DNA of 61,117 nt from a virus (lineage: Duplodnaviria; Caudoviricetes), in the IMG/VR virus record IMGVR_UViG_3300044878_000080, positions 1-61,117 of that record; one strand, written 5' to 3'. Shown piece after piece: positions 2,146 to 49,829 of this stretch (position 1 is its first letter; the number at the start of each line of letters is the position of its first letter). A program made the translations under genes and the position numbers. Below the pieces are notes generated by a model. The model saw only the letters and a program-made list of their open reading frames with translations, was not told where the DNA came from and did no database searches.

Positions 2146-3513
2146 CTAACTGTCAGGCTCTACCGGGTCTCCCGGTGCCTTGTCGAGGTAGACCAGTGAA
2201 TACAGCATCTGGTACAGGCCCGCAGACCCCGCGTGACCCGCCGAGGTGCTTACCCAGACATTATCCGGGCGCTTCTCCCAGTCAACCTGCCCCAGACGGC
2301 TCACAAGGTCAGCCATAGCCGAGTTGAAATCCTCTTCCGTGTTCCCCTTCTCAAGGGCCGAATTGAGAATATCCTCACCGAGACGGGCCGTGGCGTTCAT
2401 GCCTGCCAAGTCCTTGAGCTTGTACTTGACCGGCTCCATGACGATGAAGCCCTCATCGTCAATGACCTCTCGGGGGTGCTCATCCCAAGCGATAGCACAC
2501 GCCTTGGACACCATTTCCCAGTAGCGCTTTACAACCTTATCCACCCTGAGCTTCCGGTCCTGAAGTCGGCTCACGAGACGGACGTTGAGCATGTCGCCCG
2601 TGGAGCGGCGCAAGCCCTCGTAGGTCACCGGCTTGCCCTTGCCTTCCGGCCCGCCAGTCATGTTGACCAGACCATGCCATACCGAATCGCCGTCCTGTGC
2701 CAGCGAGTAGGCGATTTCCCGCACGAACTGGGCGTGGGACTTCTCCCCGGCTTCCATGTGGACCTTCGTGGCCTCGATGAGCGCCTTGGGCAGCTTGCGC
2801 TGGTTGGTGTTGATTTCGTCAAAGAGGTTGGCCTCTTCGGTGTAGTGCAGGCCGTAGTAGATCATGATCGGCACATCGGCATTGAATCCCTCAAGGTGCT
2901 CCCAAGCCCAGTGCAGGCCACCCATCCGGTGCTGGCCGTCCACGATGCTGAAGACATTCTTGCCGAACTCCTTGTGGATCGCGGCCACGTCGCCCTTGGC
3001 GAAGAGCTGGTTGAACTGCGTCTGGTCCTTGGGGTTGTAGATGCGGGCCGACGCGATAAGTGGGGTGATGAGGTGGCGGTTGTTGTCACGGGCGTAGTAG
3101 CGTCCGATTCCGGGGTACCGGGCCTCAAACGGCTCCCGCTGGTAACCGTTCTTGCGGGGGCTTGTGCTCTGGTCGTCCTTGGCCGAGTAGGTGCTTACGA
3201 AGGCTAATTCCTTCAGCTTGTCCGGGGTCATCGTGGCCATTGCCACCTTGCCGGGGATGAAGTGGGACTGGATCATCACCTTGGAGGTTTTGGTCCCGTT
3301 GTCCTTGACAACCCGCTTGCGGGGTGCCGGTACCGGCGTGGGGACCGTGGGGGTCTCTTCGACGGCGAGGGGAACGCGGCGGGCGCGGCTCCGGTTGTGG
3401 ACGGGTGCGGGCTTCACGGTTTCGGTAACGGTGGCGGTCTTTGCTGCTGCAATCGTGGTGTTCACTGTGTATCTCCTGTAGCTGGTTGTTTGAGTGGCCT
3501 CTTGGTTCCTCAT
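2146..3513 (-). CDS. DGQHR-domain (DndB/DpdB-like, ParB/Srx superfamily) protein
   Basis: GYQR motif, FSIVDGQHRMGGL, EEANLFDEINTNQRKL; start is either leaderless ATG 3513 (TTGACG-N18-TAGCTT-N6-ATG) or GTG 3465 with AGGAG RBS. Confidence 0.85.
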   Translation of the reverse strand: MRNQEATQTTSYRRYTVNTTIAAAKTATVTETVKPAPVHNRSRARRVPLAVEETPTVPTPVPAPRKRVVKDNGTKTSKVMIQSHFIPGKVAMATMTPDKLKELAFVSTYSAKDDQSTSPRKNGYQREPFEARYPGIGRYYARDNNRHLITPLIASARIYNPKDQTQFNQLFAKGDVAAIHKEFGKNVFSIVDGQHRMGGLHWAWEHLEGFNADVPIMIYYGLHYTEEANLFDEINTNQRKLPKALIEATKVHMEAGEKSHAQFVREIAYSLAQDGDSVWHGLVNMTGGPEGKGKPVTYEGLRRSTGDMLNVRLVSRLQDRKLRVDKVVKRYWEMVSKACAIAWDEHPREVIDDEGFIVMEPVKYKLKDLAGMNATARLGEDILNSALEKGNTEEDFNSAMADLVSRLGQVDWEKRPDNVWVSTSAGHAGSAGLYQMLYSLVYLDKAPGDPVEPDS

Positions 3514-3610
3514 GACTCAAAGCTAGGCCCTCAACTCCTACACCGTCAACACTTGACTTGACAAATCGCAAAAGCGAGTACCTAGGAAAAAATACTAAGT
3601 AGTGGTGGGT

Positions 3611-3639
3611 TTGACAGCAAGTACCGCTAGGCGTAGCCT
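3611..3639 (+). promoter_or_regulatory. SigA promoter for a leaderless mRNA
   Basis: TTGACA-N17-TAGCCT, 6 nt before ATG 3646. Confidence 0.75.
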
Positions 3640-3645
3640 CTACGC

Positions 3646-3816
3646 ATGAACAACAGTGAATTGAGTAATGGTGACGCCGTAGAGGTCACTAAGGGCCTCT
3701 GGAAAGGCGTCAAAGGCACCATTGAGGACGTACACAAGGAATCCTCAGTCGTCAGGATCAAGGATGAGCGCGGAGAGACCGCCTACGCCCTGAAAGAGGA
3801 CGTAAAGCGCCGCTAG
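3646..3816 (+). CDS. 56-aa KOW-motif (SH3-like) protein
   Basis: Not in ORF track. MNNSELSNGDAVEVTKGLWKGVKGTIEDVHKE... fits KOW GDxVxVxxGxxKGxxGxI; has its own promoter and terminator. Confidence 0.75.
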   Translation: MNNSELSNGDAVEVTKGLWKGVKGTIEDVHKESSVVRIKDERGETAYALKEDVKRR

Positions 3817-3864
3817 GCGTCTATACAGGTACAAAAGCCGGTTACAGGGGACATAACCGGCTGG

Positions 3865-3899
3865 AAAGGCCCTAATCCCCGTGATTAGGGCCTTTTTTT
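3865..3899 (+). terminator. Intrinsic terminator
   Basis: AAAGGCCCTAATC-loop-GATTAGGGCCTTTTTTT. Confidence 0.8.
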
Positions 3900-3945
3900 G
3901 ACCCCAAAACTACATATTGGTACGTGAGAAAGCCGGAAAAGCACG

Positions 3946-4293
3946 ATGAAGGTCTCGATTTACAGGGTTGAACAACCTCGCGGGGGGTTTGGACCGTATT
4001 CATGGGATTACGCCGACACGCTGGAAGACATGTTCTCCGAGCACAACGGTGGAATCCACACAGCACCCAAGCAGGATGATCTGCTGGGGTACATTGACCC
4101 GGATGAGCATTGCGGGTTTGCCACACTGGAACAGCTCAGGGAGTGGTTCGACGGCTGGGAGGAAGAGCTGGCGTCTCTGGGGTTCATCATTGCTAGGTAC
4201 TCTGTGCCGCTGCCACTGGTGAGGTACGGGAAGACACAGGCCGTGTTCAGGCGGGGTGACCTCTTCCCGGAGGATTCCCAGCCTATCTGGTAA
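3946..4293 (+). CDS. Hypothetical protein
   Basis: GGAAAAG RBS, ATG, ends at a bidirectional terminator. Confidence 0.75.
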   Translation: MKVSIYRVEQPRGGFGPYSWDYADTLEDMFSEHNGGIHTAPKQDDLLGYIDPDEHCGFATLEQLREWFDGWEEELASLGFIIARYSVPLPLVRYGKTQAVFRRGDLFPEDSQPIW

Positions 4294-4300
4294 GGCAAAA

Positions 4301-4336
4301 GGAAAGGCCCCTAGCTTGATTGCTAGGGGCCTTCTC
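4301..4336. terminator. Bidirectional terminator
   Basis: AAGGCCCCTAGC-ttgatt-GCTAGGGGCCTT between convergent genes. Confidence 0.7.
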
Positions 4337-4357
4337 TATGTGTACCGGTCGGTACAG

Positions 4358-4582
4358 TTACTTGTAGTTCCTGAAGCCCTTGGGCAGGACCGGCTTGACC
4401 TCAACCTTGCTGGTCAGGACCGTAAAGGCGTAGATCGGCAGGGCGAGCTGCCAGTACGTCAGACCAAGCTCAGGGAACCACACGGCCACCGCCCACCAGA
4501 CAATCAGTGTGCGGTAGGCGAGCACGTACAGACCGGCAAACAGGCCAGCGAGGAAGGGCATACGCTGCTTGACTACCTCCAC
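4358..4582 (-). CDS. Small membrane protein (possible ATT start at 4669)
   Basis: Hydrophobic segments; frame stays open to an ATT 6 nt after AGGAG. Confidence 0.7.
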   Translation of the reverse strand: MEVVKQRMPFLAGLFAGLYVLAYRTLIVWWAVAVWFPELGLTYWQLALPIYAFTVLTSKVEVKPVLPKGFRNYK

Positions 4583-4664
4583 CCGTTGTACGGTTGCTGT
4601 CTTGCTGACAGTGGTGAAGCTGTTCAGGTTGTCAGCGGCGGTGTTGATTTTCAGGGTTGCAGTG

Positions 4665-5033
4665 CTAATTTGATGCTCCTACTGGGTTGAATTTCCAAGG
4701 TCGAACAAATGCGGGGTCATAAAACCGGGGGCTGCGGCCCCCAGCGGCTCGGGCGTGCATGGACCGGAGTGGCCTTTGGGTCATCACCGCGCGCTGGTGG
4801 CCGGTCAGCTCAAGGCGCTGGATCACGGCTATCTCCCAGTCATCGTAGTAGTACGGCACGTCAAGTGCGCGCCGTCGCTCTTCCACGAAGGGCAGTACCC
4901 ATTCCTTGAACTCTGCCACGTCGATAGCAAGGCAGGTTCGGCACAGAGGGTGCCTGACCGCCCTGTACATGGCGAACTGCTTCAGCGGGAGGTCAAGCCC
5001 GCAGTCAGCGCACTCTTTGGTCTCAAGCCTCAC
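4665..5033 (-). CDS. Zn-ribbon-containing hypothetical protein
   Basis: CADC...CRTC; GTGA overlap with the upstream stop. Confidence 0.65.
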   Translation of the reverse strand: MRLETKECADCGLDLPLKQFAMYRAVRHPLCRTCLAIDVAEFKEWVLPFVEERRRALDVPYYYDDWEIAVIQRLELTGHQRAVMTQRPLRSMHARAAGGRSPRFYDPAFVRPWKFNPVGASN

Positions 5034-5278
5034 GCGGGGGCCTGCCAGTGATCCACGGTGCCGTCGAGGTTCCACGAGTTGTAGCAGCCCTCATGCGAAC
5101 AGAGAATTTCCTCCGGCTCGCCTGCCCTGTAGGAAATCCACAGTGGCATCCCGTGGCAGGGGGTCACGATGTTCCGGGGCCGATCTTCAGGCACAACGGC
5201 CTGCTCTGCGTTGTGTGCGAACGCGCTGCCCAGCAGCTCGTGGTCGTAGCGCTGTCGTTTGGGCTGGCCTGTTGTCAT
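5030..5278 (-). CDS. Hypothetical protein (Cys/His)
   Basis: ATGA overlap in operon. Confidence 0.65.
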   Translation of the reverse strand: MTTGQPKRQRYDHELLGSAFAHNAEQAVVPEDRPRNIVTPCHGMPLWISYRAGEPEEILCSHEGCYNSWNLDGTVDHWQAPA

Positions 5279-5565
5279 GATGCACCGTCGATAAGGGTCA
5301 GCAGGTACTCGCGGTCCCGAATGGACTGGTCATAGGGGTAGCTCGTGAACTCTGCCTTGTCCAGTTCCAGCCGCTCGCGGATTTCCTGAAGCACACGGTC
5401 ACCGACTCCGGGGTTGTCAGCCACCCAGTCAGCCCACTGCATACCCCAGCCTTCCTTGGTCTGGTGGGAGCCGTCGTGCCCTGCGACAAGGCCGCACTCA
5501 AAGAGGTGGCCGAAGGGTCCGGTGTACTGGCTGGTGCAGGTGTTCGTCTTAGTCAAAGTGTTCAT
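5275..5565 (-). CDS. Hypothetical protein with C-x-L-x3-H-x-G-x-H motif (leaderless)
   Basis: TTGCAG-N17-TAGGCT-N7-ATG 5565; ECGLVAGHDGSH. Confidence 0.7.
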   Translation of the reverse strand: MNTLTKTNTCTSQYTGPFGHLFECGLVAGHDGSHQTKEGWGMQWADWVADNPGVGDRVLQEIRERLELDKAEFTSYPYDQSIRDREYLLTLIDGAS

Positions 5566-5631
5566 ACCGCTGAGCCTACCTTCCCTTTCCGTTGCCTGCA
5601 AGCCAATAGGCCATTTTTTCTTCGCGTATTT

Positions 5632-5922
5632 TTACGGGCAAAGTCGCTCTGCTGCCCTTGTAATTCTGATTGCGCCGTGCTTCTTCATCTTCTGGTCTGC
5701 CCAGCGGACAGCCATAGCCAGCTTCCCCGCCTCAACCAGCGACATGCCCGTGTAGTCGGGGTAGTGGTTCTTCACGGTGGCTGTGCCGATGCCGTAGGTC
5801 TTGATGATCTGCCGTATGGGCCAGCCGTCTGCCACGGCTGCGTCCAACAGGGCCTTGCGCTCCGGTGAGAGCTTCCGGCCTCTTGTCACTGCTGGCATTC
5901 TTGTGACTTGTCTCGGAGCCAC
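5632..5922 (-). CDS. HTH DNA-binding protein (paralogous to C-terminal half of 959-1303)
   Basis: GWPIRQIIKTYGIGTATVKNHYP; start may be ATG 5898. Confidence 0.7.
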   Translation of the reverse strand: MAPRQVTRMPAVTRGRKLSPERKALLDAAVADGWPIRQIIKTYGIGTATVKNHYPDYTGMSLVEAGKLAMAVRWADQKMKKHGAIRITRAAERLCP

Positions 5923-6098
5923 TGAGACTCGGGTGGGGCGGTAATGAAGACCTCAAGGTTCTCCGTGCCGATGCCGTAGTCCCTGAACTCTGCCAGCCGT
6001 GCTTCGGCAGATTCTTGGGTGAGGTGGCGCTCGCTGAAGATGGAGCGCGCCACTACGTTGACGATGCGGTATTCAAGTTTGCTCTGTTGGATTGTCAT
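5886..6098 (-). CDS. Hypothetical protein (leaderless)
   Basis: TAGGCT-N7-ATG. Confidence 0.7.
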   Translation of the reverse strand: MTIQQSKLEYRIVNVVARSIFSERHLTQESAEARLAEFRDYGIGTENLEVFITAPPESQWLRDKSQECQQ

Positions 6099-6702
6099 GC
6101 AGATGAGCCTACAGGGTGCAGTACGGAAAATCCACTACTCCAACTATGTATCTCGAAGCGGGGAGCTTATTGACGATGATTCTCATCTTTATTCTGATTT
6201 AGTCAGAACTTCACGCGGAAGTGATAGCAAGCTCTCTATGCATATGCATGTATACCCTCCCCGCCCAGTGAATAAACATGTGAATAAATTCTCAGTACAC
6301 CGCATTACTTTACATGCAAACGAATGTATATGTATGCGCTCCCACACCTCCCACCCTGTGACGGCACAGATGCATGGATATGTCAAGTGCTGCCCAGTCC
6401 TCGAGAATACTTGAATGCTCAACGCTCTAAGGCTCTGTATGCCTCTCTAAGGGCCTCGCATGGCTCTTAGGCACTCTCACCTATCCATGCCCTTGATAGG
6501 GCCTCAGCGTGGCGTGTAGGGCTCATGAGGGTATGCACAGCACACGTACCCACAGACAGGGCAGCTCCATAGGAAGGGCCTGTTATAGGGCTTCCATACA
6601 GCGTATGGGAAAGTAGTTGCAAACGCGGCATAAGGTACCGATTTTTTGTGTTGCCCTCTATCACCCAATTTATTTATTGAAAACAGAATATGTAAGTAAG
6701 GA

Positions 6703-6731
6703 ATAATAATAAATACATATATAAGTTACCT
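6703..6731 (+). repeat. 29-bp AT-rich element, copy 1 (copy 2 at 34942-34970)
   Basis: ATAATAATAAATACATATATAAGTTACCT exact match. Confidence 0.9.
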
Positions 6732-6861
6732 ACGGGAGATGTCGATTATTGGATAGTGATGGTATCTAACCCGCGCTCCTCCCTACTCCCATATGGCCTG
6801 TACCCACATTGTACTGCCCTTTGTACTGCCCTCTCCGATACCCCGATTTACCCTCAAAACA

Positions 6862-6978
6862 GGTAATACATTTCATTATCACGATGTAATACGTTACCTA
6901 TTTTGTGACCATCGTCACACCTCCCAAATTCCCCTCAATTCGGTAATACATTGCATCGACATAATGGAATGCGTTACC
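6862..6978. repeat. Two 37-bp imperfect palindromes (6862-6898, 6942-6978)
   Basis: GGTAATACATTKCAT-N7-ATGKAATRCGTTACC. Confidence 0.8.
6904..6919. promoter_or_regulatory. Perfect CRP/GlxR consensus site
   Basis: TGTGA-CCATCG-TCACA. Confidence 0.6.
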
Positions 6979-7170
6979 TCCCAAGCCCCGTATTCCGACC
7001 TCGCTCCGCAGGGCACGTAGACCCTGTGGAGAGTACCCGCACACAACGTGTGCTCTCAGCGCATAGGGACGCTGTAAGCCTCTGTAAGCGCCTATCAGCA
7101 CAGCTACCCTCTCCCAGTGCCTAAGACGTACCGTTAGAGCCTCACAGAGCCGCCTAGGCCCTTAGAACGC

Positions 7171-7200
7171 AAAAAAGCCCCCTACGTGTGTAGGGGGCTT
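7171..7200 (-). terminator. Terminator closing the low-GC island operon
   Basis: AAGCCCCCTAC-acac-GTAGGGGGCTTTTTT on the minus strand. Confidence 0.8.
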
Positions 7201-7215
7201 GAATGCTTGTTGGGG

Positions 7216-7710
7216 TTACTGGCCGTCGATCCGGTTTACTTTGTCGTTGCAACGATCGCAGATAGGCACGTCACCCAATACCGGGTGGTTACGTGCGCCG
7301 GTTGCATCATTCTCGCAGCGTGCAAACCACTGGCACTGAACGGGGGTTACTTCCTGTTCAGTCATGAACTCGTCGTAATGGTCTCGCATCTGCTCAAAGT
7401 GCCGGATCAATTCACTTTCCAGCGTGTACTGCTTCACAGTGACTAGGCCCTGCTCATTCTCGCTGACCATGAAATGCCCAACGAGTGAGTCGCGCAACTC
7501 TTGAGTAAAGGGGAAACCTTCACTTTCAACTAGCAACTCGATAACAGAATTGAACTCTGTATTTGTTTGGGATACTTCCATTGCATCTAGGGAGATACGC
7601 CAGATATAAACGCCATAGTCTGTGACGTCTCCAAAGCTGTCATTTCCCCAGTCTTGGGTGCACAGGAAGTGGAGAGCTGAATCACGGAATGAATCGAATT
7701 TTCCAAGCAT
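7216..7710 (-). CDS. Hypothetical early protein with C-terminal Cys4 motif
   Basis: AAAGGA RBS; CQWFARC...CDRC. Confidence 0.8.
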   Translation of the reverse strand: MLGKFDSFRDSALHFLCTQDWGNDSFGDVTDYGVYIWRISLDAMEVSQTNTEFNSVIELLVESEGFPFTQELRDSLVGHFMVSENEQGLVTVKQYTLESELIRHFEQMRDHYDEFMTEQEVTPVQCQWFARCENDATGARNHPVLGDVPICDRCNDKVNRIDGQ

Positions 7711-7744
7711 GTTATTTGTCCTTTGTTTTGTGTGGAGAGATTAG

Positions 7745-8155
7745 TTACTGATTTTTGTACGGGCGCATGTGGATAGCCATGCCACTACCGCCGTTTTTGC
7801 CGTAGTAGCGAGTGCCGTTGGGTGCTACAGCTTGCACGTAACTAACGCTTGAGCCATGCCAACCAGTATTGGCAGTACCGATATACGTCACTTTCATCAG
7901 CACAGCACCGGGCCATGTAGTGATCTGCTTACCGTCACTGGACACATAAGCAAACACAGACTCACCGCGCTCCACAGCTTCAATGTCCGGTTTAGATGCA
8001 CAGGCATAGCAAAGGGTCTTACCGTCGTTGTCCCTAGCGGCTCCTGTGAACATGGCTACTCCGGTGCTGTGGAATGCCGTGGGGGCCTCTGGCAAGTGTC
8101 CACAGTCCAGTGGAGTAGTCCAGTAGGGAGAATTGAGAGAGTAAGTGTTGTCCAT
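7745..8155 (-). CDS. Hypothetical early protein
   Basis: AAAGGA RBS; LDCGH...LCYAC. Confidence 0.8.
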   Translation of the reverse strand: MDNTYSLNSPYWTTPLDCGHLPEAPTAFHSTGVAMFTGAARDNDGKTLCYACASKPDIEAVERGESVFAYVSSDGKQITTWPGAVLMKVTYIGTANTGWHGSSVSYVQAVAPNGTRYYGKNGGSGMAIHMRPYKNQ

Positions 8156-8199
8156 GATTTATTTTCCTTTGTTTTGTGTGGAGTGAATCGGGAGAGTAA

Positions 8200-8484
8200 T
8201 TACTCTCCCCCAAAGTCGTCGGATGCCTGATATTCGGCACTTGAAATGTCCCTAGTGGAGAACTCAAGGAAAGTGTCAGACTTCCAAGGGCTTACATAAC
8301 GGTCAATGACCCTCACAAAGGTAAGACCCTTGAATTCAGGGTGCTTATCTCCAAACTCAGTACCGATTGAAATAACGGCAGGATCTTCCTGCCCGCATAC
8401 TGTCTCCCCCAATTGCCAGTAGTCCAGCATGTTCGCCATAACGTCGGCAAACAATTCTTTGTTGTATGGGATGGTCTTAGCCAT
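8200..8484 (-). CDS. Hypothetical acidic early protein
   Basis: TAATG coupling; GGGGAG RBS. Confidence 0.75.
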   Translation of the reverse strand: MAKTIPYNKELFADVMANMLDYWQLGETVCGQEDPAVISIGTEFGDKHPEFKGLTFVRVIDRYVSPWKSDTFLEFSTRDISSAEYQASDDFGGE

Positions 8485-8825
8485 TAGTAATTCTCCCCAG
8501 CTAGGCGCAACAGTGAATCGTACTTAGCAAGCACCTTTAGAGCGTGGCCTACGTGCTTACGGAATTGGTCAAGCGTAAGAGGTTCATAGATGTACTCCCC
8601 AGCCTGTAGCAGTCCCTCTAGGGCCTGATAGCTGTAGTCCTCCGCATCTCCACCAAAGGGACTTGCTACGTATTGCAGCTCACTGGGGATAGAGACCTCA
8701 TATTTGGTTGCAATGTCGCACAGGGCAAACAAAAACCTAATGTTGCTCCCCCATTTGTCACCGGAGTCGAAATTCTCCCGTAGCACAGTCAGGACGGGAT
8801 TAGTGTTGCTAGGCCATGTAGTCAT
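8484..8825 (-). CDS. Hypothetical early protein
   Basis: AAAGGA RBS. Confidence 0.8.
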   Translation of the reverse strand: MTTWPSNTNPVLTVLRENFDSGDKWGSNIRFLFALCDIATKYEVSIPSELQYVASPFGGDAEDYSYQALEGLLQAGEYIYEPLTLDQFRKHVGHALKVLAKYDSLLRLAGENY

Positions 8826-8837
8826 GTTGTGAATCCT

Positions 8838-8918
8838 TTACTTAAGTTTGTCTTGAATTGCATATCGGTAGACCCAAGCACAGGCAATAACGAGTGCAAG
8901 GAATTGAAGCCCGTTCAC
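8838..8918 (-). CDS. 26-aa single-TM peptide
   Basis: MNGLQFLALVIACAWVYRYAIQDKLK; GTGA overlap. Confidence 0.5.
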   Translation of the reverse strand: MNGLQFLALVIACAWVYRYAIQDKLK

Positions 8919-9010
8919 AGTGTCACCAGTAGCGCGTATGCGTTATAGATGACCGTTACGAATATGAGAACTCTTACGTGCCTGTAGTACCTGATTTCGT
9001 AAGCTTCCAT
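8915..9010 (-). CDS. 31-aa hydrophobic peptide
   Basis: MEAYEIRYYRHVRVLIFVTVIYNAYALLVTL; AAGGA RBS. Confidence 0.55.
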   Translation of the reverse strand: MEAYEIRYYRHVRVLIFVTVIYNAYALLVTL

Positions 9011-9021
9011 TGTTTGTTTCC

Positions 9022-9120
9022 TTAGAACGGTGGGCTAATCCAACTGGGGAGGAATACAAATACAACGATTAGTGACCAGCCAAAGACTTTTGAAGCGTGA
9101 GGGAATAGTTCAGTCTTCAA
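9022..9120 (-). CDS. 32-aa hydrophobic peptide
   Basis: TTG start; MKTELFPHASKVFGWSLIVVFVFLPSWISPPF fills the gap between genes. Confidence 0.4.
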   Translation of the reverse strand: MKTELFPHASKVFGWSLIVVFVFLPSWISPPF

Positions 9121-9685
9121 TGTTTACAGCCCTAGCCTTTACAAGAGCTGCCAACATTTCAATGTCTTCCTTTGTGGCGTAGGGAGTCGCCCCGTCGCTA
9201 TCAATTTCAACGTATTCCCACCAATCAATGTTGTCATCTAGCCATTCACCATTAGGCAAATAGGTAGGCCTAGTCTCTAGCACTTCCCCTATTTCCTCTT
9301 TTGTCATGTCTTCAATGGCGTAGGCCAATTCATCGACTAGGAATTCAAGCTTTGTTTCTGTCTCAAGGTCTGAGTAATCAGTGTCGTTGAATATCGGTTC
9401 ACGTTCCGCTAGGTCTTCCACTAGTTCCCGGTAGTCCGCATTACGAATGAACTGTGATGCGCTCATGGTTAGTGAGTAGTGCATATCGATAAAGCGTGAC
9501 TTCCTGTAATGCCTTTTGATTGAGCGACGGTTACTATCGTCAATCAGTGTCGCGCCGTAGCCGTAATAGGTATTCGGAATGATGACTCTCTTTACTTCCC
9601 CTCCCTTGCACAGCTCCAACAGAGACTCAATCGTTGGGGTCTGTGCTTCCTCTTCATACCAAACATTCTTCAAATAGCTAAACAT
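9110..9685 (-). CDS. Hypothetical early protein with strongly acidic C-terminal half
   Basis: AAAGGA RBS; D/E-rich. Confidence 0.8.
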   Translation of the reverse strand: MFSYLKNVWYEEEAQTPTIESLLELCKGGEVKRVIIPNTYYGYGATLIDDSNRRSIKRHYRKSRFIDMHYSLTMSASQFIRNADYRELVEDLAEREPIFNDTDYSDLETETKLEFLVDELAYAIEDMTKEEIGEVLETRPTYLPNGEWLDDNIDWWEYVEIDSDGATPYATKEDIEMLAALVKARAVNIED

Positions 9686-9756
9686 TGTGTGTTCCTTTGT
9701 TTGTTGGCTAATAGGGCATAACGCGCTAGGTGCGAGACCCAGCGCGCAAAGCCTAA

Positions 9757-10074
9757 TTAGTCGTTATTGGCTTCCCGGTATTCAGCAAGCGCCTGCATTG
9801 CTTGCTGCTTTGTTGCGTACGTCATGTGCTCGCCGATTGTTTCAATGTCCAATCTTTCATCCGACTCCCGGACCACTTTGCGGACATTGAACAATTTAGG
9901 TTCGCCGGATTCGTAACGTTCCGACGTGATGAAATACCGTCCACCGATCAATGAACTTTCAATTTTGCTGTTGAAGAATTTCATTGCTTTGGGAGTGAAC
10001 CAGAAACTCCCCGCCGCGCTAAATGCTGCTTTCACAGCAGGAATGGAAGTGAACTCGTCATAGCCTTTAGTCAT
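9757..10074 (-). CDS. Hypothetical early protein
   Basis: GSFWFTPKAMKFFNSKIE; AAAGGA RBS. Confidence 0.8.
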   Translation of the reverse strand: MTKGYDEFTSIPAVKAAFSAAGSFWFTPKAMKFFNSKIESSLIGGRYFITSERYESGEPKLFNVRKVVRESDERLDIETIGEHMTYATKQQAMQALAEYREANND

Positions 10075-10092
10075 TGTCTTTTGTTCCTTTGC

Positions 10093-10284
10093 TTAGTTGT
10101 TCGGGTTGCTGAAGTCGAAAATTCGGATATTGAATGGTGCATCTGCGTAAAGCTCAGAGCCACCATTAGGGCCTTCAAGCACTACATGCTCAGGTGTGCG
10201 GCCTGCTTTGCTGCTCACCTTGAAGGGGCCTATCCACTCGCCGCGCTCCAAAATTTCTACTTTGTCCCCAGCCTTGAATCCCAT
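10093..10284 (-). CDS. Small SH3/KOW-like protein, first gene of the island operon
   Basis: FKAGDKVEIL; GGGGAGAG RBS. Confidence 0.7.
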   Translation of the reverse strand: MGFKAGDKVEILERGEWIGPFKVSSKAGRTPEHVVLEGPNGGSELYADAPFNIRIFDFSNPNN

Positions 10285-10400
10285 GTCTCTCCCCTAGCTG
10301 CTAACGACTGATTAGGGACTCTCCCTAAGCAGACCAAAGCCTCTAGTCTTCCCGCGCTAGGTACCTAGTAATGACTAGGCCCTAGCGCGCTACCCGCGTT

Positions 10401-10417
10401 CACTGTTTAGTTTTCAA
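10401..10417 (-). promoter_or_regulatory. boxA-like antitermination element in the island leader
   Basis: TTGAAAACTAAACAGTG resembles Gram-positive rrn leader boxA. Confidence 0.45.
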
Positions 10418-10532
10418 TTCCTGCCTAGCGGGTAGGTGTTCCTGGGAGCTAACCGCGCTCCCTTTCCCCTGCCTCCCTGTCTTGCGCCTTCAGCCTAACC
10501 CGTACCAGCAAAAAGTGCACCTTTCCACAGGG

Positions 10533-10666
10533 TTATCCACAGAAAAGGGGTAGTTATCCACAGTTGCAACCAGGTTTTACACAATTGGGGCCAGGTTATC
10601 CACAGTTTCATGCAAGTTATCCACAGATTCATACGTGTTATCCACAGGAAAACGGGGTTATCCACA
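10533..10666 (+). repeat. Phased array of DnaA boxes
   Basis: TTATCCACA at 10533, 10554, 10596, 10617, 10638, 10658; degenerate TTTTACACA at 10575; another perfect box at 10925. Confidence 0.9.
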
Positions 10667-11408
10667 GGATTTTCTGTTACTGGCGAGTAACTTAGTGGAA
10701 AAATAAAAATACTGTTACCTATCTGTTACCTAACCTGTTTTCTGACCTCTCGAATACGCGCCCGCGCGCATGACGCGCGTGAAATAACACAGGTATGAAG
10801 CTCTGTCTACCCTTTGGGAGCCGTTATCTAAATCGTGACCTTTAGGCCCTGTGAGCCGATCTAACAGCTTGGGGGTCGAAAACAGGTATTTGTCCACGGG
10901 CGTAAAAAGCTGAGTTTCCACAGGTTATCCACAGACAACTGTTTCGTATTTGACAACCTGTAGTCATACTCTCACTTAGGTGACTTCTAATGAATGGCAT
11001 TCATTTAGGCTTCCTAATGGTTAGGTATGCCTAAGTCAGCCTCACAGGGCAGCGGCAAACTACATGCAAACGCATATACCTTGGAGTGCATATAAATACA
11101 GGTTGGCTATCGCGCGCGTTCAACTATGCAAGCGGTACTTTGTACTGCTATTTGTACTGCCGAAACTAAGCAGTAGGCAGCTATCGGTTAGGCAAACGAT
11201 AGTAAAGCTCTCAGTTAGCGAGCTTGGGAGGCCATACCAGCCCCGGAGACGGCTTTCGTCGGATCGCACCAGCCCCCGCGGGTGTGGTCTAGGCGTAAAA
11301 CACCCTAAAGAAGTCCCCTTGGACCAAATTCTCGGGAGGTCTGGGGGATTTTTGGCGGGATTCTAGTTTATCTTCAGGGACTTTGGCAACTTATGGTAGG
11401 CTATAGCC

Positions 11409-11903
11409 GTGAAAGAAACTAAACCCAAAAAATACAACGTGATCGACTGGCGTATACGCTTCTGGGCCAAGGTCAACAAGACAGACACATGCTGGCTCTG
11501 GACTGCTGGCCAGAATGAGAATGGGTACGGGGTGTTCAGGGTAGCGGGAAGGCTTACGGGGGCACACAGGGTGGCCTACAAGCTTGAGCATGGGAGCATC
11601 CCAGCCGGAGCCGTCGTTGACCACATATGCCACGTAAGGCATTGCGTGAGACCGGAACACCTACGAGCGGTCACCCAGAAGCAGAATGCTGAGCACAAGA
11701 AGGGTGTTGCAGCTAACAACACGTCCGGGTACAACGGTGTCCATTGGAACAAGCAGTTTGGCAAGTGGAAGGTCACGATTAGGCACAACGGTAGGCTGCA
11801 CTACTTTGGCTTGTACGATGACTTGCACGAAGCAGGAGAGGTCGCTAGAGTCAAGCGCAACGAACTCTTCACACACAATGACAAAGACAACAAAGGAGTG
11901 TAG
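11409..11903 (+). CDS. HNH homing endonuclease with C-terminal AP2 domain
   Basis: AHRVAY...VDHICHVRHCVRPEHL...N; NTSGYNGVHW...YFGLYD. Confidence 0.9.
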   Translation: MKETKPKKYNVIDWRIRFWAKVNKTDTCWLWTAGQNENGYGVFRVAGRLTGAHRVAYKLEHGSIPAGAVVDHICHVRHCVRPEHLRAVTQKQNAEHKKGVAANNTSGYNGVHWNKQFGKWKVTIRHNGRLHYFGLYDDLHEAGEVARVKRNELFTHNDKDNKGV

Positions 11904-11912
11904 GTTAGTCCC

Positions 11913-12125
11913 ATGACAACTTTCCCGAACGGCCAGAAGGTCCGAGTGACCGAAGCTTACGGCAACACCAGCCAGAACGGTGACGGCAGCGTCCAAGGAC
12001 TTCACGGCGTGGTGGGTGAGGTCAGCCAGCATATTGCGGGGTACGTTGAGGTAGCCCTGAGCTACGGCGATAGCCCCGCCAAGTACCTGTACTTCTTCCT
12101 CCCCGAGGAACTGGAAGCCGTCTAG
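11913..12125 (+). CDS. Small SH3-like hypothetical protein
   Basis: FPNGQKVRV...FLPEELEAV. Confidence 0.7.
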   Translation: MTTFPNGQKVRVTEAYGNTSQNGDGSVQGLHGVVGEVSQHIAGYVEVALSYGDSPAKYLYFFLPEELEAV

Positions 12126-12270
12126 GGTACCCCACCCCCTCACGAAACGATTTTGACTTTTGGCAAAAGGCCGTTTGCCTTATAGATCTGATGGGGCTTG
12201 CACCACCCGAAACAACCTGCTATCGTATCCCGGTAGCAGGTTGTTTTTATTTGTACGATAGGAGAGCAAA

Positions 12271-12981
12271 GTGGAAGAATTGAAAGAGAAATACGGCGAC
12301 TGGGTAGCATTCACCCGCACCCGTGAGGCCGAGCGTGCCAAGGTCATGAACCCCGAGAGCACACAGGCACTACGGCAGAAGATCAAGGACCAACAGGGCG
12401 TCGTGCTCAAGGCACAGGCAGAGTTGCAGATGCTCAAGGCCCAGCTCACCCTGTCAGGGGCAGACGGCGCACCCTACCGCAAGGCAGCGTTCGACCTTGA
12501 ATGGTCTGAGCGCAAGGCAGTTCTCAAGGATGAGGTGGAAACCCTCATTGCCGAGCAGATTGAGGCTGGGGTGTCCATCCCCAAGCTCATGAAAGAGCTT
12601 CAGTGCAAGTCCCCTAACTGGCTGTACTCCATCAAGGAAAACCTTGCCCTGTACCGTGGGGCAACCAAGGAAGACACGCTGGACGCACTGTGGGAGTGGT
12701 CCGACGCCACCAGCGTCCACCGCTACGGCCTTGCCAAGGCACCGGAGACAAACGAGTGGGCCTTTGTGCTCCTCATTGGTGCGATTGACTCTGAGTTCGA
12801 CGGAGAGCGCTGCGTCTTCGACTTCAAGACTGGCTTCTTTGTCAGCGGCAGTCGTGCCCTGTTCGACAGCGTTACTGACGGTGTGAAGAAACAAAGGGCC
12901 ACGCTACTTGCGTCAATTCTTGACAGCACGTACACTAAAAAAATAAGGCGGGATACCAACCCGTACTTTCACACCAAGTAG
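12271..12981 (+). CDS. Hypothetical protein (coiled coil plus possible HTH)
   Basis: AGGAGAG RBS; GVSIPKLMKEL. Confidence 0.8.
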   Translation: MEELKEKYGDWVAFTRTREAERAKVMNPESTQALRQKIKDQQGVVLKAQAELQMLKAQLTLSGADGAPYRKAAFDLEWSERKAVLKDEVETLIAEQIEAGVSIPKLMKELQCKSPNWLYSIKENLALYRGATKEDTLDALWEWSDATSVHRYGLAKAPETNEWAFVLLIGAIDSEFDGERCVFDFKTGFFVSGSRALFDSVTDGVKKQRATLLASILDSTYTKKIRRDTNPYFHTK

Positions 12982-17929: not shown

Positions 17930-19039
17930 GTGAAGATCACTGAACTGTTCAGCCTTGAAGACCTTGAGCTGGAACTACAAGACGGCTACGTGGTGGAGCG
18001 GAAGCACCCCACGTTGCCCCTGACCATCCTAAACTACACGGACAGGGCCACGTTTGAGCAGCGCTGGAACTGTGTCACCGAGAACTGCCGGGGCCTCATC
18101 GTGAACAACGTCACGGATGAAGTCATTGCCCGTGGCCCCCGCAAGTTCTTCAACTACGGTGAGCCGTCTGCTACACCGTGGCCTCTGGACACTCAGGTAC
18201 GCCTCACCCGCAAGGAAGACGGCTCGCTGGGTATCGGCTGGCAGTATGAGGACAACTACGGCATTGCTACGCGGGGCAGCTTCACGTCGGAGCAGGCCGT
18301 TCACGCCACAGAGCAGATGACTCCTGACGAAGAGGGCAGCATCGACTTTGGGGATGTCAACGGCAACTCCCGCATGTGGGAGATTGTCTACCCGGAGAAC
18401 CGGATTGTGCTGGACTACGGAGACCGGGACGAACTGATTCCTCTGGGCACCGTGGACAACAAGACGGGTCTTATCCGCTACCGCCCAAGCCATGTGCTTG
18501 TGGACGGTCAGCCTGCCGTCATGACACTGGCTGAGGCCATTGCCCTGCCCATCCCCGACGATGAAGAGGGCTACGTCCTTGACATTCTGGATGAGTACCT
18601 GAATGTGGTTGACCACCTCAAGCTCAAGGGTGACAGGTACAAGGAACTGCACGCGGCTATCTTCGGCCTGACTGAGGCCAGAGTGTACGAAGCGTGGCTC
18701 AAGGACGATGTGCTTGACTTCATTGAAGCCCTGCCGGATGAGGTACAGCCGTGGGCACTCGCTGTGGCTCAGCGTCTTGACAGCGAGCATGAGGGCTACA
18801 TGTTCCGTGTGCGGGAAGCCTACGAGGACACCTACTGGAACATCCGAGGCAGCGTGGTTGATCGCAAAGAATGGGCGCAGTACATCATGGCCAACCACAA
18901 GGACTTGTCCGCTGGTCTGTTCGCCCTGCTTGACGGCAACACCGAGAAGTGCCATGCTTGGGTAGACAAACAGATCAAGCCGGGACACGTACCGTTCTCG
19001 TCACTAACTACGCAGAAACAGGAGCGAATTTCACTGTGA
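17930..19039 (+). CDS. T4 Rnl1-like RNA ligase
   Basis: NCRGLI, KFFNYGE, motif I KEDGS, EGYVL, KLKG. Confidence 0.9.
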   Translation: MKITELFSLEDLELELQDGYVVERKHPTLPLTILNYTDRATFEQRWNCVTENCRGLIVNNVTDEVIARGPRKFFNYGEPSATPWPLDTQVRLTRKEDGSLGIGWQYEDNYGIATRGSFTSEQAVHATEQMTPDEEGSIDFGDVNGNSRMWEIVYPENRIVLDYGDRDELIPLGTVDNKTGLIRYRPSHVLVDGQPAVMTLAEAIALPIPDDEEGYVLDILDEYLNVVDHLKLKGDRYKELHAAIFGLTEARVYEAWLKDDVLDFIEALPDEVQPWALAVAQRLDSEHEGYMFRVREAYEDTYWNIRGSVVDRKEWAQYIMANHKDLSAGLFALLDGNTEKCHAWVDKQIKPGHVPFSSLTTQKQERISL

Positions 19040-19986
19040 CAGCAGAAATCATTATTACGAGGGGCCTGCCGGGTAGCGGCAAGAGCACATGGGCCAAAGC
19101 ATTTGCCAGCCTTGCAGGCAACGTCGCCATTGTTGAGCGTGATGAACTGCGCTTGCAGCTCTTTGGCTCCTACTGGACGGGCAAGCAGGAGGACGAAGAG
19201 CGGGTCACCCGGCTTCAGGAAGCGCTGGTGCGTTCGTACCTCACTGAGGGTACGCGGGTGGTTATCTCGGACACCCACCTCCCCGACCGTTCGGTGAAGA
19301 AGTGGCTCAAGCTGGGGGCTGAGCTGGGTGTGCCCGTGGAGGTACAGGAGTTCCGTCACGTCCCGCTGGCTCAGGTGCTTGTCCAGAATCAGGCTACCGA
19401 ACGCTTGCGTGGCGGCAAGGCTGTGGCCCGAGAAGTCATCACGGACAAGTACGAGCGCTTCATCAAGGGCCGTAACCTTGACAAGGTAGTGGAGTACACC
19501 CCCAAGGCAAAGGCTGTGATTGAGCCTTACGTGCAGCCCCCTGTACCGGCCTACCCGCGTCTCAACGCTGTCATCTTCGATATTGACGGCACACTGGCAG
19601 TCATGGGTGACCGCTCGCCCTACGACGGGGCTGCTGTCTGGAAGGACGCGCCGAACCACGACGTTGCCACCGCCCTCACCTTGCACCGTGAAGCCCAGCA
19701 CACCATCTACATTGTCAGCGGACGGGACGAAGAGTACCGTGACGTGACGGAGAAGTGGCTGGACTCCCACGGACTCAAGTACGACGGCTTGTTCATGCGT
19801 CCCACCGAACAGGGTGACAAGCGCGAGGACAGCATTATCAAGCACGAGTTGTTCAACAAGTACATTCGGCCCTTGGGCCACCGCATTGTGGGTGTGTACG
19901 ATGACCGGCACCGTGTGCTCCGCATGTGGCGGAAGCTGGGACTCACCACCTTCCACGTCAACGGACCCGACGCGGGCGACTTCTAA
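19036..19986 (+). CDS. pseT: Polynucleotide 5'-kinase/3'-phosphatase (T4 PseT-like)
   Basis: P-loop GLPGSGKST, RD motif, HAD DIDGTL, SGR, YDDR. Confidence 0.9.
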   Translation: MTAEIIITRGLPGSGKSTWAKAFASLAGNVAIVERDELRLQLFGSYWTGKQEDEERVTRLQEALVRSYLTEGTRVVISDTHLPDRSVKKWLKLGAELGVPVEVQEFRHVPLAQVLVQNQATERLRGGKAVAREVITDKYERFIKGRNLDKVVEYTPKAKAVIEPYVQPPVPAYPRLNAVIFDIDGTLAVMGDRSPYDGAAVWKDAPNHDVATALTLHREAQHTIYIVSGRDEEYRDVTEKWLDSHGLKYDGLFMRPTEQGDKREDSIIKHELFNKYIRPLGHRIVGVYDDRHRVLRMWRKLGLTTFHVNGPDAGDF

Positions 19987-23632: not shown

Positions 23633-23701
23633 CGGGGTTTGGTGTATGGGTAACACATGAGGGTAGCTCCCTCAGCAACAGGTTCGAGTCCTGACCCCCG
23701 A
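23633..23701 (+). ncRNA. Atypical tRNA-like element (nominal anticodon AGC)
   Basis: D arm GTGT/ACAC, TGAGG(G)/(C)CCTCA arm, CAGG-TTCGAGT-CCTG T arm, CGGGG/CCCCG acceptor; non-canonical anticodon loop. Confidence 0.65.
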
Positions 23702-23725
23702 CTCATCGTTGAAAGGAAGTGCAGT

Positions 23726-48818: not shown

Positions 48819-49316
48819 TTAGACTAGCGCCTTGTTGAGGGCCATTTTTCCCGTGGGCTTGAAGGGCACAGTCGTCTGGATCGGAGAACCGCCGTCGCCT
48901 TCAACTACCTGATGGTAGTCAGAGACAACACCGTAGACAGAGACAAGCTGCGTGACTGCCGGGGCAACGGTGGACTTGTAACCCTGACGGGAAACAAGCC
49001 AGCCCTCGGTACGGCCAGCCGTGAACAGGTCATTGGCCGTGGTGAACACGGTGGACGCATCCCCAATGCCGTCGCGGAAGAAGGACAGGGAAGCTTCGTA
49101 GTTGCCAAAGGTCGGCGTCGAAACGTTACCTTCGTCAACGATAGTCTTGCTGTCATCCGTGTCAGAGTCAGTCGCGGCCAGCGTGTAGCCGGTCACGATA
49201 GCAGCAGACAGGTTGATGCCAGCGGTAATTTCAGCCACCGTAGGGGCTGCGTAGTTGGCGATTCCGGCAGACGGAACCCACCAGATAGTCGTGTTAGGAC
49301 TCATCATTTTAGCCAT
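48819..49316 (-). CDS. Major tail (tube) protein, copy 2
   Basis: Paralogue of 49332-49829. Confidence 0.85.
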   Translation of the reverse strand: MAKMMSPNTTIWWVPSAGIANYAAPTVAEITAGINLSAAIVTGYTLAATDSDTDDSKTIVDEGNVSTPTFGNYEASLSFFRDGIGDASTVFTTANDLFTAGRTEGWLVSRQGYKSTVAPAVTQLVSVYGVVSDYHQVVEGDGGSPIQTTVPFKPTGKMALNKALV

Positions 49317-49331
49317 TACTCAGTGGCCTCC

Positions 49332-49829
49332 TTACGCTACGAGAGTCTTGTGAAGGGCCATTTTGCCCTGCGGGAGGAACGGGACCGTGTACTCAACCGG
49401 GCCACCATCCTGTACAGCATCCTGCGGGTTGTCCGCAATGAACTTGTACGAGGAAACCTTCTGACCAGCGGCGGCAGCAACGGTGGACAGGTAGCCCACC
49501 CGACGCACGAGGTAGCCGGAAGCCTTGCCGTCCTTGAAGAACGCGAAAGCCTTGGCAAAATCAGACGTGGTTGCCGCAACGTCAGCATCACGGAAGAAGG
49601 TCAAGTTGCCTTCGTAGTTGTAGAACGTCGGCACACCCGCGTTGGCACCGTCGCAAATGCTGGTGCTGTCATCGGTATCCGAGTCAGTAGCATTCAACGT
49701 GTAGCCCGAGACAATGGCGCAAGAGATGTTTGCGGCGTTGGTCAGCAGAGCGGCAGACGGAGAATCGGGGTTGTAACCCGCGTCAGCAACCCACCAGATC
49801 GTGGTGTTGGGACTCATCATTTTTGCCAT
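49332..49829 (-). CDS. Major tail (tube) protein, copy 1
   Basis: Position after tail terminator; same first 14 aa as copy 2. Confidence 0.85.
   Translation of the reverse strand: MAKMMSPNTTIWWVADAGYNPDSPSAALLTNAANISCAIVSGYTLNATDSDTDDSTSICDGANAGVPTFYNYEGNLTFFRDADVAATTSDFAKAFAFFKDGKASGYLVRRVGYLSTVAAAAGQKVSSYKFIADNPQDAVQDGGPVEYTVPFLPQGKMALHKTLVA

Follow-up and report, generated by a model that had tools for sequence, protein, structure and literature searches.

Loci of the datA type, which titrate DnaA, and multicopy operators, which titrate repressors, present clustered or symmetric sites away from genes. Such sites also occur in the phage contig IMGVR_UViG_3300044878_000080, whose entire 61,117 nt are referred to here as the window and in which two blocks (block 1, 6100-7170; block 2, 10300-11400) flank a low-GC island of small genes; unlike the window, however, those systems are chromosomal or engineered and involve a single regulator, and we know of no datA-type titration by several regulators in one stretch of phage DNA. 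Block 2 carries several sequences that match operators of the likely hosts, as judged from the adjoining host genes, and relatives of this phage exchange sets of these putative operators. The window was assembled as a single circular contig (127-nt overlap) and encodes a siphovirus that has a primase, a helicase and a polymerase of its own. It is a complete phage genome, which structural and replication genes in common and a common layout relate to Amigovirus (cluster AQ), relatedness and not genus membership being what was assessed, and we infer a host of the family Micrococcaceae (Arthrobacter-like).

The first-step-transfer repeats of phage T5 resemble the window in their non-coding, repeat- and palindrome-rich blocks of ~1 kb around variable early genes and in the presence of DnaA boxes in a phage with its own replisome, as described in bioRxiv 10.1101/866236. 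However, the conserved T5 boxes come as pairs in two inverted blocks that belong to a 10-kb terminal repeat, whereas the window has one phased, optional array together with matches to TetR, MarR, IdeR, CRP and acyl-CoA operators. In Corynebacterium glutamicum, an inserted repressor operator relieves the silencing of phage promoters by the Lsr2-like protein CgpS (PMC7002338), and the window likewise combines phage DNA of low GC content with putative operators of unrelated repressors of the host; nevertheless, the operators described for CgpS were engineered into a cryptic prophage, no more than ~25 bp from the silencer peak, whereas those of the window are natural, lie partly far from predicted promoters and belong to a lytic-type phage. 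Amigo and Molivia, Arthrobacter phages of cluster AQ (PMC5513430), share with the window a portal that is ~50% identical, the arm layout, tRNAs, a divergent gap and an rRNA-leader-like motif, but their gaps contain only one and no perfect DnaA boxes, respectively. Many copies of an own 15-bp palindrome surround the divergent promoters in these gaps (L002 8200-9000, L004 7000-7830). Finally, rrn boxA and lambda nut (PMC13753749) resemble the window in an rRNA-leader-like motif within an early leader with hairpins, although in the window the boxA part is degenerate, no N-like protein was identified and the motif is absent from some relatives.

That non-coding phage DNA can contain DnaA boxes is known from T5, and such boxes are common (phased triplets were found at 94 viral loci) and have stayed unexplained since T5; here their neighbours are matches to narrow host operators, for which host genomes allow the regulators and target genes to be named. 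Unannotated arrays of DnaA boxes were also seen in cultured Klebsiella, Shigella and Lactococcus phages (L155 19-198, L156 22-135, L157 2141-2515). A literature search for narrow host operators collected in a phage hub found no paper, most subscription papers lying outside the search.

Host-type operator matches and their exchange among relatives

Micrococcaceae genomes were searched for the motifs of the window, each reversed pattern serving as the control, and the genes next to the sites were annotated. The best match of all is the palindrome at 10989, which shares 20 identical nt with a host TetR/amine-oxidase site (L313). This palindrome has 22 sites in 13 of 41 genomes, against one for the control, and the ten loci fetched comprise six tetR-flavin amine oxidase pairs, one pair of tetR with a weakly named FAD enzyme, two positions before a carbon-nitrogen hydrolase gene and one unrelated context. 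The palindrome at 10676, originally read as a GlnR/MtrA site, points instead to a regulator of acyl-CoA catabolism: it is found at 43 sites in 22 of the 41 genomes (7 for the control), and all seven sites of this type in four genomes precede genes for acyl-CoA dehydrogenase (4), thiolase (2) or an SDR/carboxyltransferase (1). Moreover, its arms are kept with three different spacers in otherwise diverged DNA; among 33 loci with this palindrome in viral contigs, DnaA boxes lie near only one.

The TTAGG-N3/4-CCTAA elements at 11005 and 11021 had been assigned to IdeR/DtxR, which seems to fit the IdeR core at 11021, whereas the 3-bp-spacer palindrome at 11005 corresponds to a marR-efflux layout. 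In hosts, the tandem with a 16-bp period (once in each of four genomes; 7/41 genomes against 0 for the control) overlies the marR start with an MFS gene behind it, the MFS gene being present in all three fetched loci and MarR named in one. This layout consists of tandem 13-bp palindromes, with which the window agrees in the period and the first unit, its second unit being longer by one base. The 4-bp-spacer form, of the 11021 type, shows no excess in hosts (18 versus 24 for the control), and of the six of its nine sites that were annotated, four precede efeU (2) or acnA (2), the others being at a transposase gene and a glyoxalase gene; the full 19-bp IdeR/DtxR palindrome is missed by 5 mismatches. 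The direct repeat at 10713 has the 11-bp period of the MtrA/GlnR box (PMC6265350), and its strict form occurs 5 times, against 4 for the control, in the 41 genomes. ArgR sites were rejected: argC-type ARG boxes come in tandem, although single boxes have also been reported (PMC3293853), and host argC has two at a 20-bp period, whereas the two boxes proposed for the window (6281 and 11087) are single and partial; the strict pattern shows no enrichment in hosts (2 versus 2), and the box at 6279 is not conserved.

Relatives were collected with a flanking 236-aa protein, a search free of motif bias that returned 17 loci, six of which reach block 2. In four of these (L151, and L141-143, which form one lineage), the array of DnaA boxes is retained together with the 10676 palindrome and the 11-bp repeat; the other two (L140 and L153) have none of the three. 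In L140 and L153, a perfect CRP-type site lies in this same intergenic gap, 10 nt from a predicted -35. The array begins at a distance of 1 nt from the predicted -35 not only in the window but also in L151, L141-143 and G001, a complete relative that was found through the array itself and is hence a biased case. The array and the CRP site are therefore alternatives at what appears to be one promoter slot, and different putative operators are exchanged further out. G001 keeps the array, the leader and the lone DnaA box but not the 10676 palindrome, and a soil contig keeps 10478-10941 with 10941-12096 replaced. Among the inverted 5-mers in 8.6 kb of family blocks, the CRP class, with 8 sites and five spacers, ranks first of 184, followed by the 11005/11021 and 10676 types. 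In its block 2 (L060, ~2435-2455), G001 carries another palindrome with six host intergenic copies, three ahead of cydA and one ahead of sucC, which could be the motif of an unnamed respiratory regulon. DasR-like and McbR-like boxes of relatives were dismissed as host operators, since strict patterns of low power showed no enrichment in 25 host-family genomes (2 versus 10 and 2 versus 1 for the controls). LexA-like boxes were also seen in L151 (~1725-1800) in place of the lone DnaA pair of the window.

Motif density was evaluated with consensus patterns of the regulators concerned, the two blocks being compared with 1000 dinucleotide-shuffled versions. Every motif listed in the original prediction is present at its position. 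Perfect DnaA boxes number 7 against 0.02 expected, and the eight phased boxes of the array are not chance; P was 0.002 for CRP, 0.02 for the GlnR/MtrA-type pattern and 0.017 and 0.049 for ARG, while Fur (P=0.08; 0.001 for a post-hoc variant), Zur (P=0.06), the full 19-bp IdeR pattern (P=0.41) and LexA, PhoP, NrdR, HrcA and HspR (P=0.47-1.0) did not exceed the shuffles. Perfect palindromes with arms of at least 6 number 10 in block 2 against 2.6 expected, a count reached by 0 of 200 shuffles, and 6 in block 1 against 2.4 (P=0.03, 200 shuffles), with a mean of 3.3 and a maximum of 9 in 42 coding tiles. Thus, the idea that density is the signal is upheld in block 2 and only marginally so in block 1. 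The predicted leader region contains 6 of the 18 palindromes of block 2.

The reference for an unbiased comparison was the intergenic DNA (311 kb) identified in 2.4 of the 4.2 Mb of one host genome, the known host marR and efeU sites lying outside the 2.4 Mb covered. At P<0.001, 2 of 32 window palindromes had a host match, against 0 of 240 coding controls (Fisher 0.013), as had 3 of 85 palindromes of relatives, two of them being the 10676 motif again and the third the G001 palindrome with six host copies. Exact k-mers shared with host intergenic DNA were not above coding tiles in the blocks, except at 10989. Given these counts, a few sites are strong, whereas most palindromes are unexplained or form part of RNA hairpins.

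Proposed cis action and its alternatives

Host regulators probably bind the hub formed by block 2, a gap without genes from which the two gene arms of the phage diverge, where they would help the viral early genes to switch on or would be drawn off their own genes. Narrowly ahead of a repressor decoy stands the first option, in which the host-type operators act in cis to license the predicted early promoters, with a probability of about 35%. Host regulators would occupy the exchangeable operator set as phage DNA enters, and through this occupancy the low-GC hub would stay open and let the predicted early promoters fire, either by displacement of the host silencer Lsr2 or by direct gating of the promoter by any tight-binding host protein available. 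In favour of this reading, the slot at the promoter is exchangeable, the CRP-type class ranks first in the family blocks, and a repressor unrelated to silencing can counteract an Lsr2-like protein (PMC7002338). None of the operators is obligatory, in line with an occupancy that matters more than identity. Lsr2 is encoded in 3/3 host genomes and 0/2 phage genomes, and the lowest-GC 100-nt windows of block 2 (38-39%, against 64% in the host) span the end of the array, the 10676 site and the 10989 cluster. Moreover, one entering genome would offer too few sites for titration but enough for an effect in cis.

Several points weigh against cis licensing. The relief described for CgpS is restricted to ~25 bp around the silencer peak near the start site (PMC7002338). 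Most sites had been thought to lie away from promoters, which is not true of the array, one base from a predicted -35, but does apply to the 10676 site (~160 bp from the nearest predicted promoter) and to the TetR/MarR/IdeR cluster at 10989-11034 (360-470 bp), whose distance argues for a decoy. Narrow repressors would also be an odd choice for such a general job. In addition, most window palindromes have no host match, and the excess disappears at P<0.01 (2/32 versus 4/240 coding palindromes, Fisher 0.15) and in a permutation version on part of one host genome (3/32 versus 7/70). Finally, the promoters were read by eye with the actinobacterial consensus in view, and a sigma-70 scan returned one site, against 7.0 in shuffles, and recovered none of them.

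Only slightly less probable is that the replicated genome copies act as a multi-operator decoy, titrating low-copy host repressors and DnaA, so that amine oxidation, acyl-CoA catabolism, efflux and iron uptake are derepressed and host initiation is halted. The best-matched sites are indeed symmetric copies of operators that have 1-4 exact sites per host genome, those at 10989-11034 overlap one another away from the predicted promoters, G001 carries a different host motif (that found ahead of sucC and cydA), and the co-oriented, phased array is unlike host oriC; nevertheless, only the DnaA boxes are multiplied, the TetR site is confined to the window, the array has been lost in some relatives, and any benefit would require host transcription to persist after replication. 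A lytic lineage might in this manner reprogram host metabolism without genes, a proposal to be held as tentatively as the decoy itself, by means of a cassette of host operators (DnaA, CRP, the acyl-CoA regulator, the amine-oxidase TetR, MarR, IdeR and, in one relative, the respiratory regulator) that soaks up repressors after genome amplification. If so, host takeover by non-coding phage DNA would be a route missed by gene-based annotation. That the host-like sites are mostly incidental, as captured scraps or chance matches under little selection in a promoter and RNA-leader region, is unlikely: the rapid turnover of sites, the many unmatched palindromes, the permutation result and the lack of enrichment of DasR-like and McbR-like boxes would agree with it, but the 10676 arms persist with three spacers and the CRP arms with five in diverged DNA, host identity ends at the operator edge (16-20 nt), and chance does not account for the phased DnaA boxes.

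Still less probable is an entry element of the T5 type, also suggested originally, in which host proteins would hold on to the DNA that enters first, so that injection pauses or is ratcheted. DnaA boxes among the repeats of the T5 non-coding injection-stop region have led to such a proposal in silico (bioRxiv 10.1101/866236), gene order puts the island near one genome end, as with Amigo genes 84-89, and two Autographiviridae records have DnaA-box arrays within their first 200 nt. However, the T5 boxes are paired 3 bp apart in two inverted blocks and are found in nearly all relatives, whereas the window has a 21-bp period in one block, with no perfect box in block 1; no A1 or A2 name appears among 73 scanned open reading frames; and depth over the island and both blocks is 921, where GC predicts 936 +/- 69 and a repeat as long as the island would give 1410, a comparison valid only for virion DNA. 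This reading is thus weakened by the absence of the array from two of six relatives and by the lack of a long terminal repeat over the island in depth. Equally improbable is a host-DnaA-assisted origin for the first rounds of phage replication. The phased boxes adjoin an AT-rich stretch and the MtrA-like repeat, MtrA boxes occur among DnaA boxes in mycobacterial oriC (PMC4285127, PMC6265350), and the phage has no dnaA; but it does have its own replication proteins, close relatives have lost the array, which weakens the origin reading, and four host oriC (dnaA-dnaN) regions contain few boxes in mixed orientation, with no phased array, 11-bp repeat or 10676 palindrome. The box layout of these four origins also rules out the array as a copy of a Micrococcaceae oriC.

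The close relatives represent natural swaps, and the three readings (action in cis, decoy and grip at entry) differ in what they predict, which makes the question directly testable. The operator matches also give clues to the host family and to Micrococcaceae regulons that have received little study.

Features of the blocks, the island and the genome

GC content is 48.5% in block 1, 48.1% in the island and 49.2% in block 2, against 57.0% in the rest of the genome. None of 12 open reading frames of the blocks matches PHROGs, and single-base indels are found throughout block 1 in relatives, so both blocks look non-coding.

Table. Features of the two blocks and the island (positions in the window; strand given where assigned)
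Feature	Positions	Strand	Remarks
Predicted -10 of leftward promoter	6106-6111	-	7 nt before start codon at 6098; similar hexamer and spacing in L153, G001
Weak Zur-like site	6171-6185		2 mismatches from host motif; 2-mismatch version in G001, lost in L153
ARG-like match	6279-6296		5 changes in a relative's contig; not kept in L153 or G001; single; not supported
AT-rich tract (28-32% GC), candidate genome-end region	6626-6775		kept in L153, G001
12-bp-period direct repeat	6809-6828	+	second copy 11140-11159; likely phage protein site
Two 38-bp copies of imperfect inverted repeat	6862-6899, 6942-6979		kept in L153, L142; phage-specific
Perfect CRP/GlxR-type site	6904-6919		P=0.002; other sequence in this slot in L153, L142, G001
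Intrinsic terminator-like hairpin closing island	7175-7200	-	from sequence
Low-GC leftward operon, small genes of unknown function, presumably early	7216-10284	-	48% GC; gene content varies among relatives
Predicted structured leader RNA	10285-10434	-	fold z=-4.4; absent from L140-143, L153
rRNA-leader-like motif (distal part of boxA-containing leader)	10403-10417	-	single genome copy; kept in L151, G001, Amigo, Molivia
Predicted early promoter	10492-10520	-	-10 10492-10497, -35 10515-10520; aligned in L151, G001, L141, L143; read by eye
Co-oriented DnaA-box array	10521-10666	+	20-21-bp period; six perfect boxes, one consensus variant, one imperfect
Acyl-CoA catabolism operator match	10676-10691		kept in L141-143, L151
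11-bp-period direct repeat, MtrA/GlnR-like	10713-10740	+	kept in L141-143, L151, loosely in G001
Lone perfect DnaA box and imperfect neighbour	10925-10933	+	same place in G001
28-bp imperfect inverted repeat around operator cluster	10954-11105		fold z=-2.25; not in relatives
Host TetR-family operator match	10989-11005		tetR/flavin amine oxidase intergenic type; not in relatives
Tandem palindromes, 16-bp period	11005-11034		host marR-MFS operator layout; second unit one extra base, IdeR/DtxR core
ARG-like match	11087-11100		single box; strict pattern 2 vs 2 control in hosts; not supported
Predicted -10 of rightward promoter	11397-11402	+	6 nt before HNH gene start at 11409; read from sequence

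In the predicted leader of block 2, 15 of 49 pairs are changed on both sides, in only three sequences, and a search of Rfam with 3000-12500 gave three matches, all under the gathering score. Of 12 host loci tested for the rRNA-leader-like motif, 11 have the host form upstream of 16S rRNA, and boxA proper, whose counterpart in Bacillus binds NusB (PMC13753749), is near-intact in Amigo and Molivia; because it is degenerate in the window, a role of this motif in processing or antitermination is no more than a lead. At 10950-10955, immediately ahead of the operator cluster, there is also a perfect sigma-70 -35 hexamer that has no fitting -10; if it belonged to a hidden promoter, the operators would be in a repressing position.

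Block 1 appears to be a separate element, a genome-end and promoter region, and the notion of two equivalent landing pads for host proteins was abandoned: block 1 is dominated by phage-specific repeats that were not found in the host genomes searched, and its host-type content amounts to one unconserved CRP site and one weak Zur-like site. The parts kept in L153, G001 and partly in L142 are the promoter end, the AT tract and the two 38-bp repeats, whereas the CRP and ARG-like sites are not kept. The 38-bp repeats were found in 0 of 41 host-family genomes, and the 12-bp-period repeat had one match, against one for the control, in four host genomes. The assignment of TGTGA-N6-TCACA to the CRP/GlxR type is borne out by its density and by its use in hosts, even though the site at 6904 is not conserved: with 5-bp arms and a free 6-bp spacer, this motif occurs 14 times against 3 for the control, and seven of eight fetched loci lie ahead of carbon-metabolism genes. 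The Zur/Fur-like site at 6171 fares less well, since the motif is real in hosts, where a search at 1 mismatch gave 27 sites in 16/41 genomes against 0 for the control (znuA twice and aztD once among eight fetched loci), but the copy in the window is 2 mismatches off and does not exceed shuffles as Zur or as Fur.

By gene order, block 1 is the counterpart of an Amigo gap located where the terminal repeat has its left end, where an AT-rich tract is also found, and block 2 to the Amigo divergent gap between genes 83 and 84; this placement relies on gene order and direction only, no flanking gene of block 1 being common to Amigo or Molivia. Cluster AQ phages have 1.5-kb terminal repeats (PMC5513430). 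Contig depth tracks GC (r=0.70), and therefore no genome end was mapped from it; an Amigo-type gene-bearing terminal repeat left of block 1 was not seen in depth, while a short repeat of up to ~1 kb within block 1 would be compatible with it. Neither block matched cultured phages in a DNA search with the region at E<=1e-5, an endolysin search of bacterial genomes found no relative, and an alignment search of viral contigs added no further ones.

The island proteins include one DUF7447 and otherwise match unnamed PHROGs; no island gene is shared with Amigo or Molivia, and Atlas gave no usable result for the 191-aa island protein. A strong intergenic hairpin lies at 9690-9765 on the minus strand (z=-4.8), and similar hairpins precede several island genes in relatives; these are possibly RNA processing sites. 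A 25-nt repeat, 92% identical and containing a ribosome-binding site, lies ahead of two island genes (7716-7740 and 8162-8186). Elsewhere in the window, a 455-aa protein with weak ParB-like and DndB matches (2146-3513, minus strand) is 87-88% identical in close relatives and lies elsewhere in G001; two adjoining genes for 165-aa major tail proteins are found at 48819-49829 (minus strand); and an RNA ligase and polynucleotide kinase pair lies at 17930-19986 (plus strand), with three tRNA calls in the window at 663-736, 814-887 and 23633-23702.

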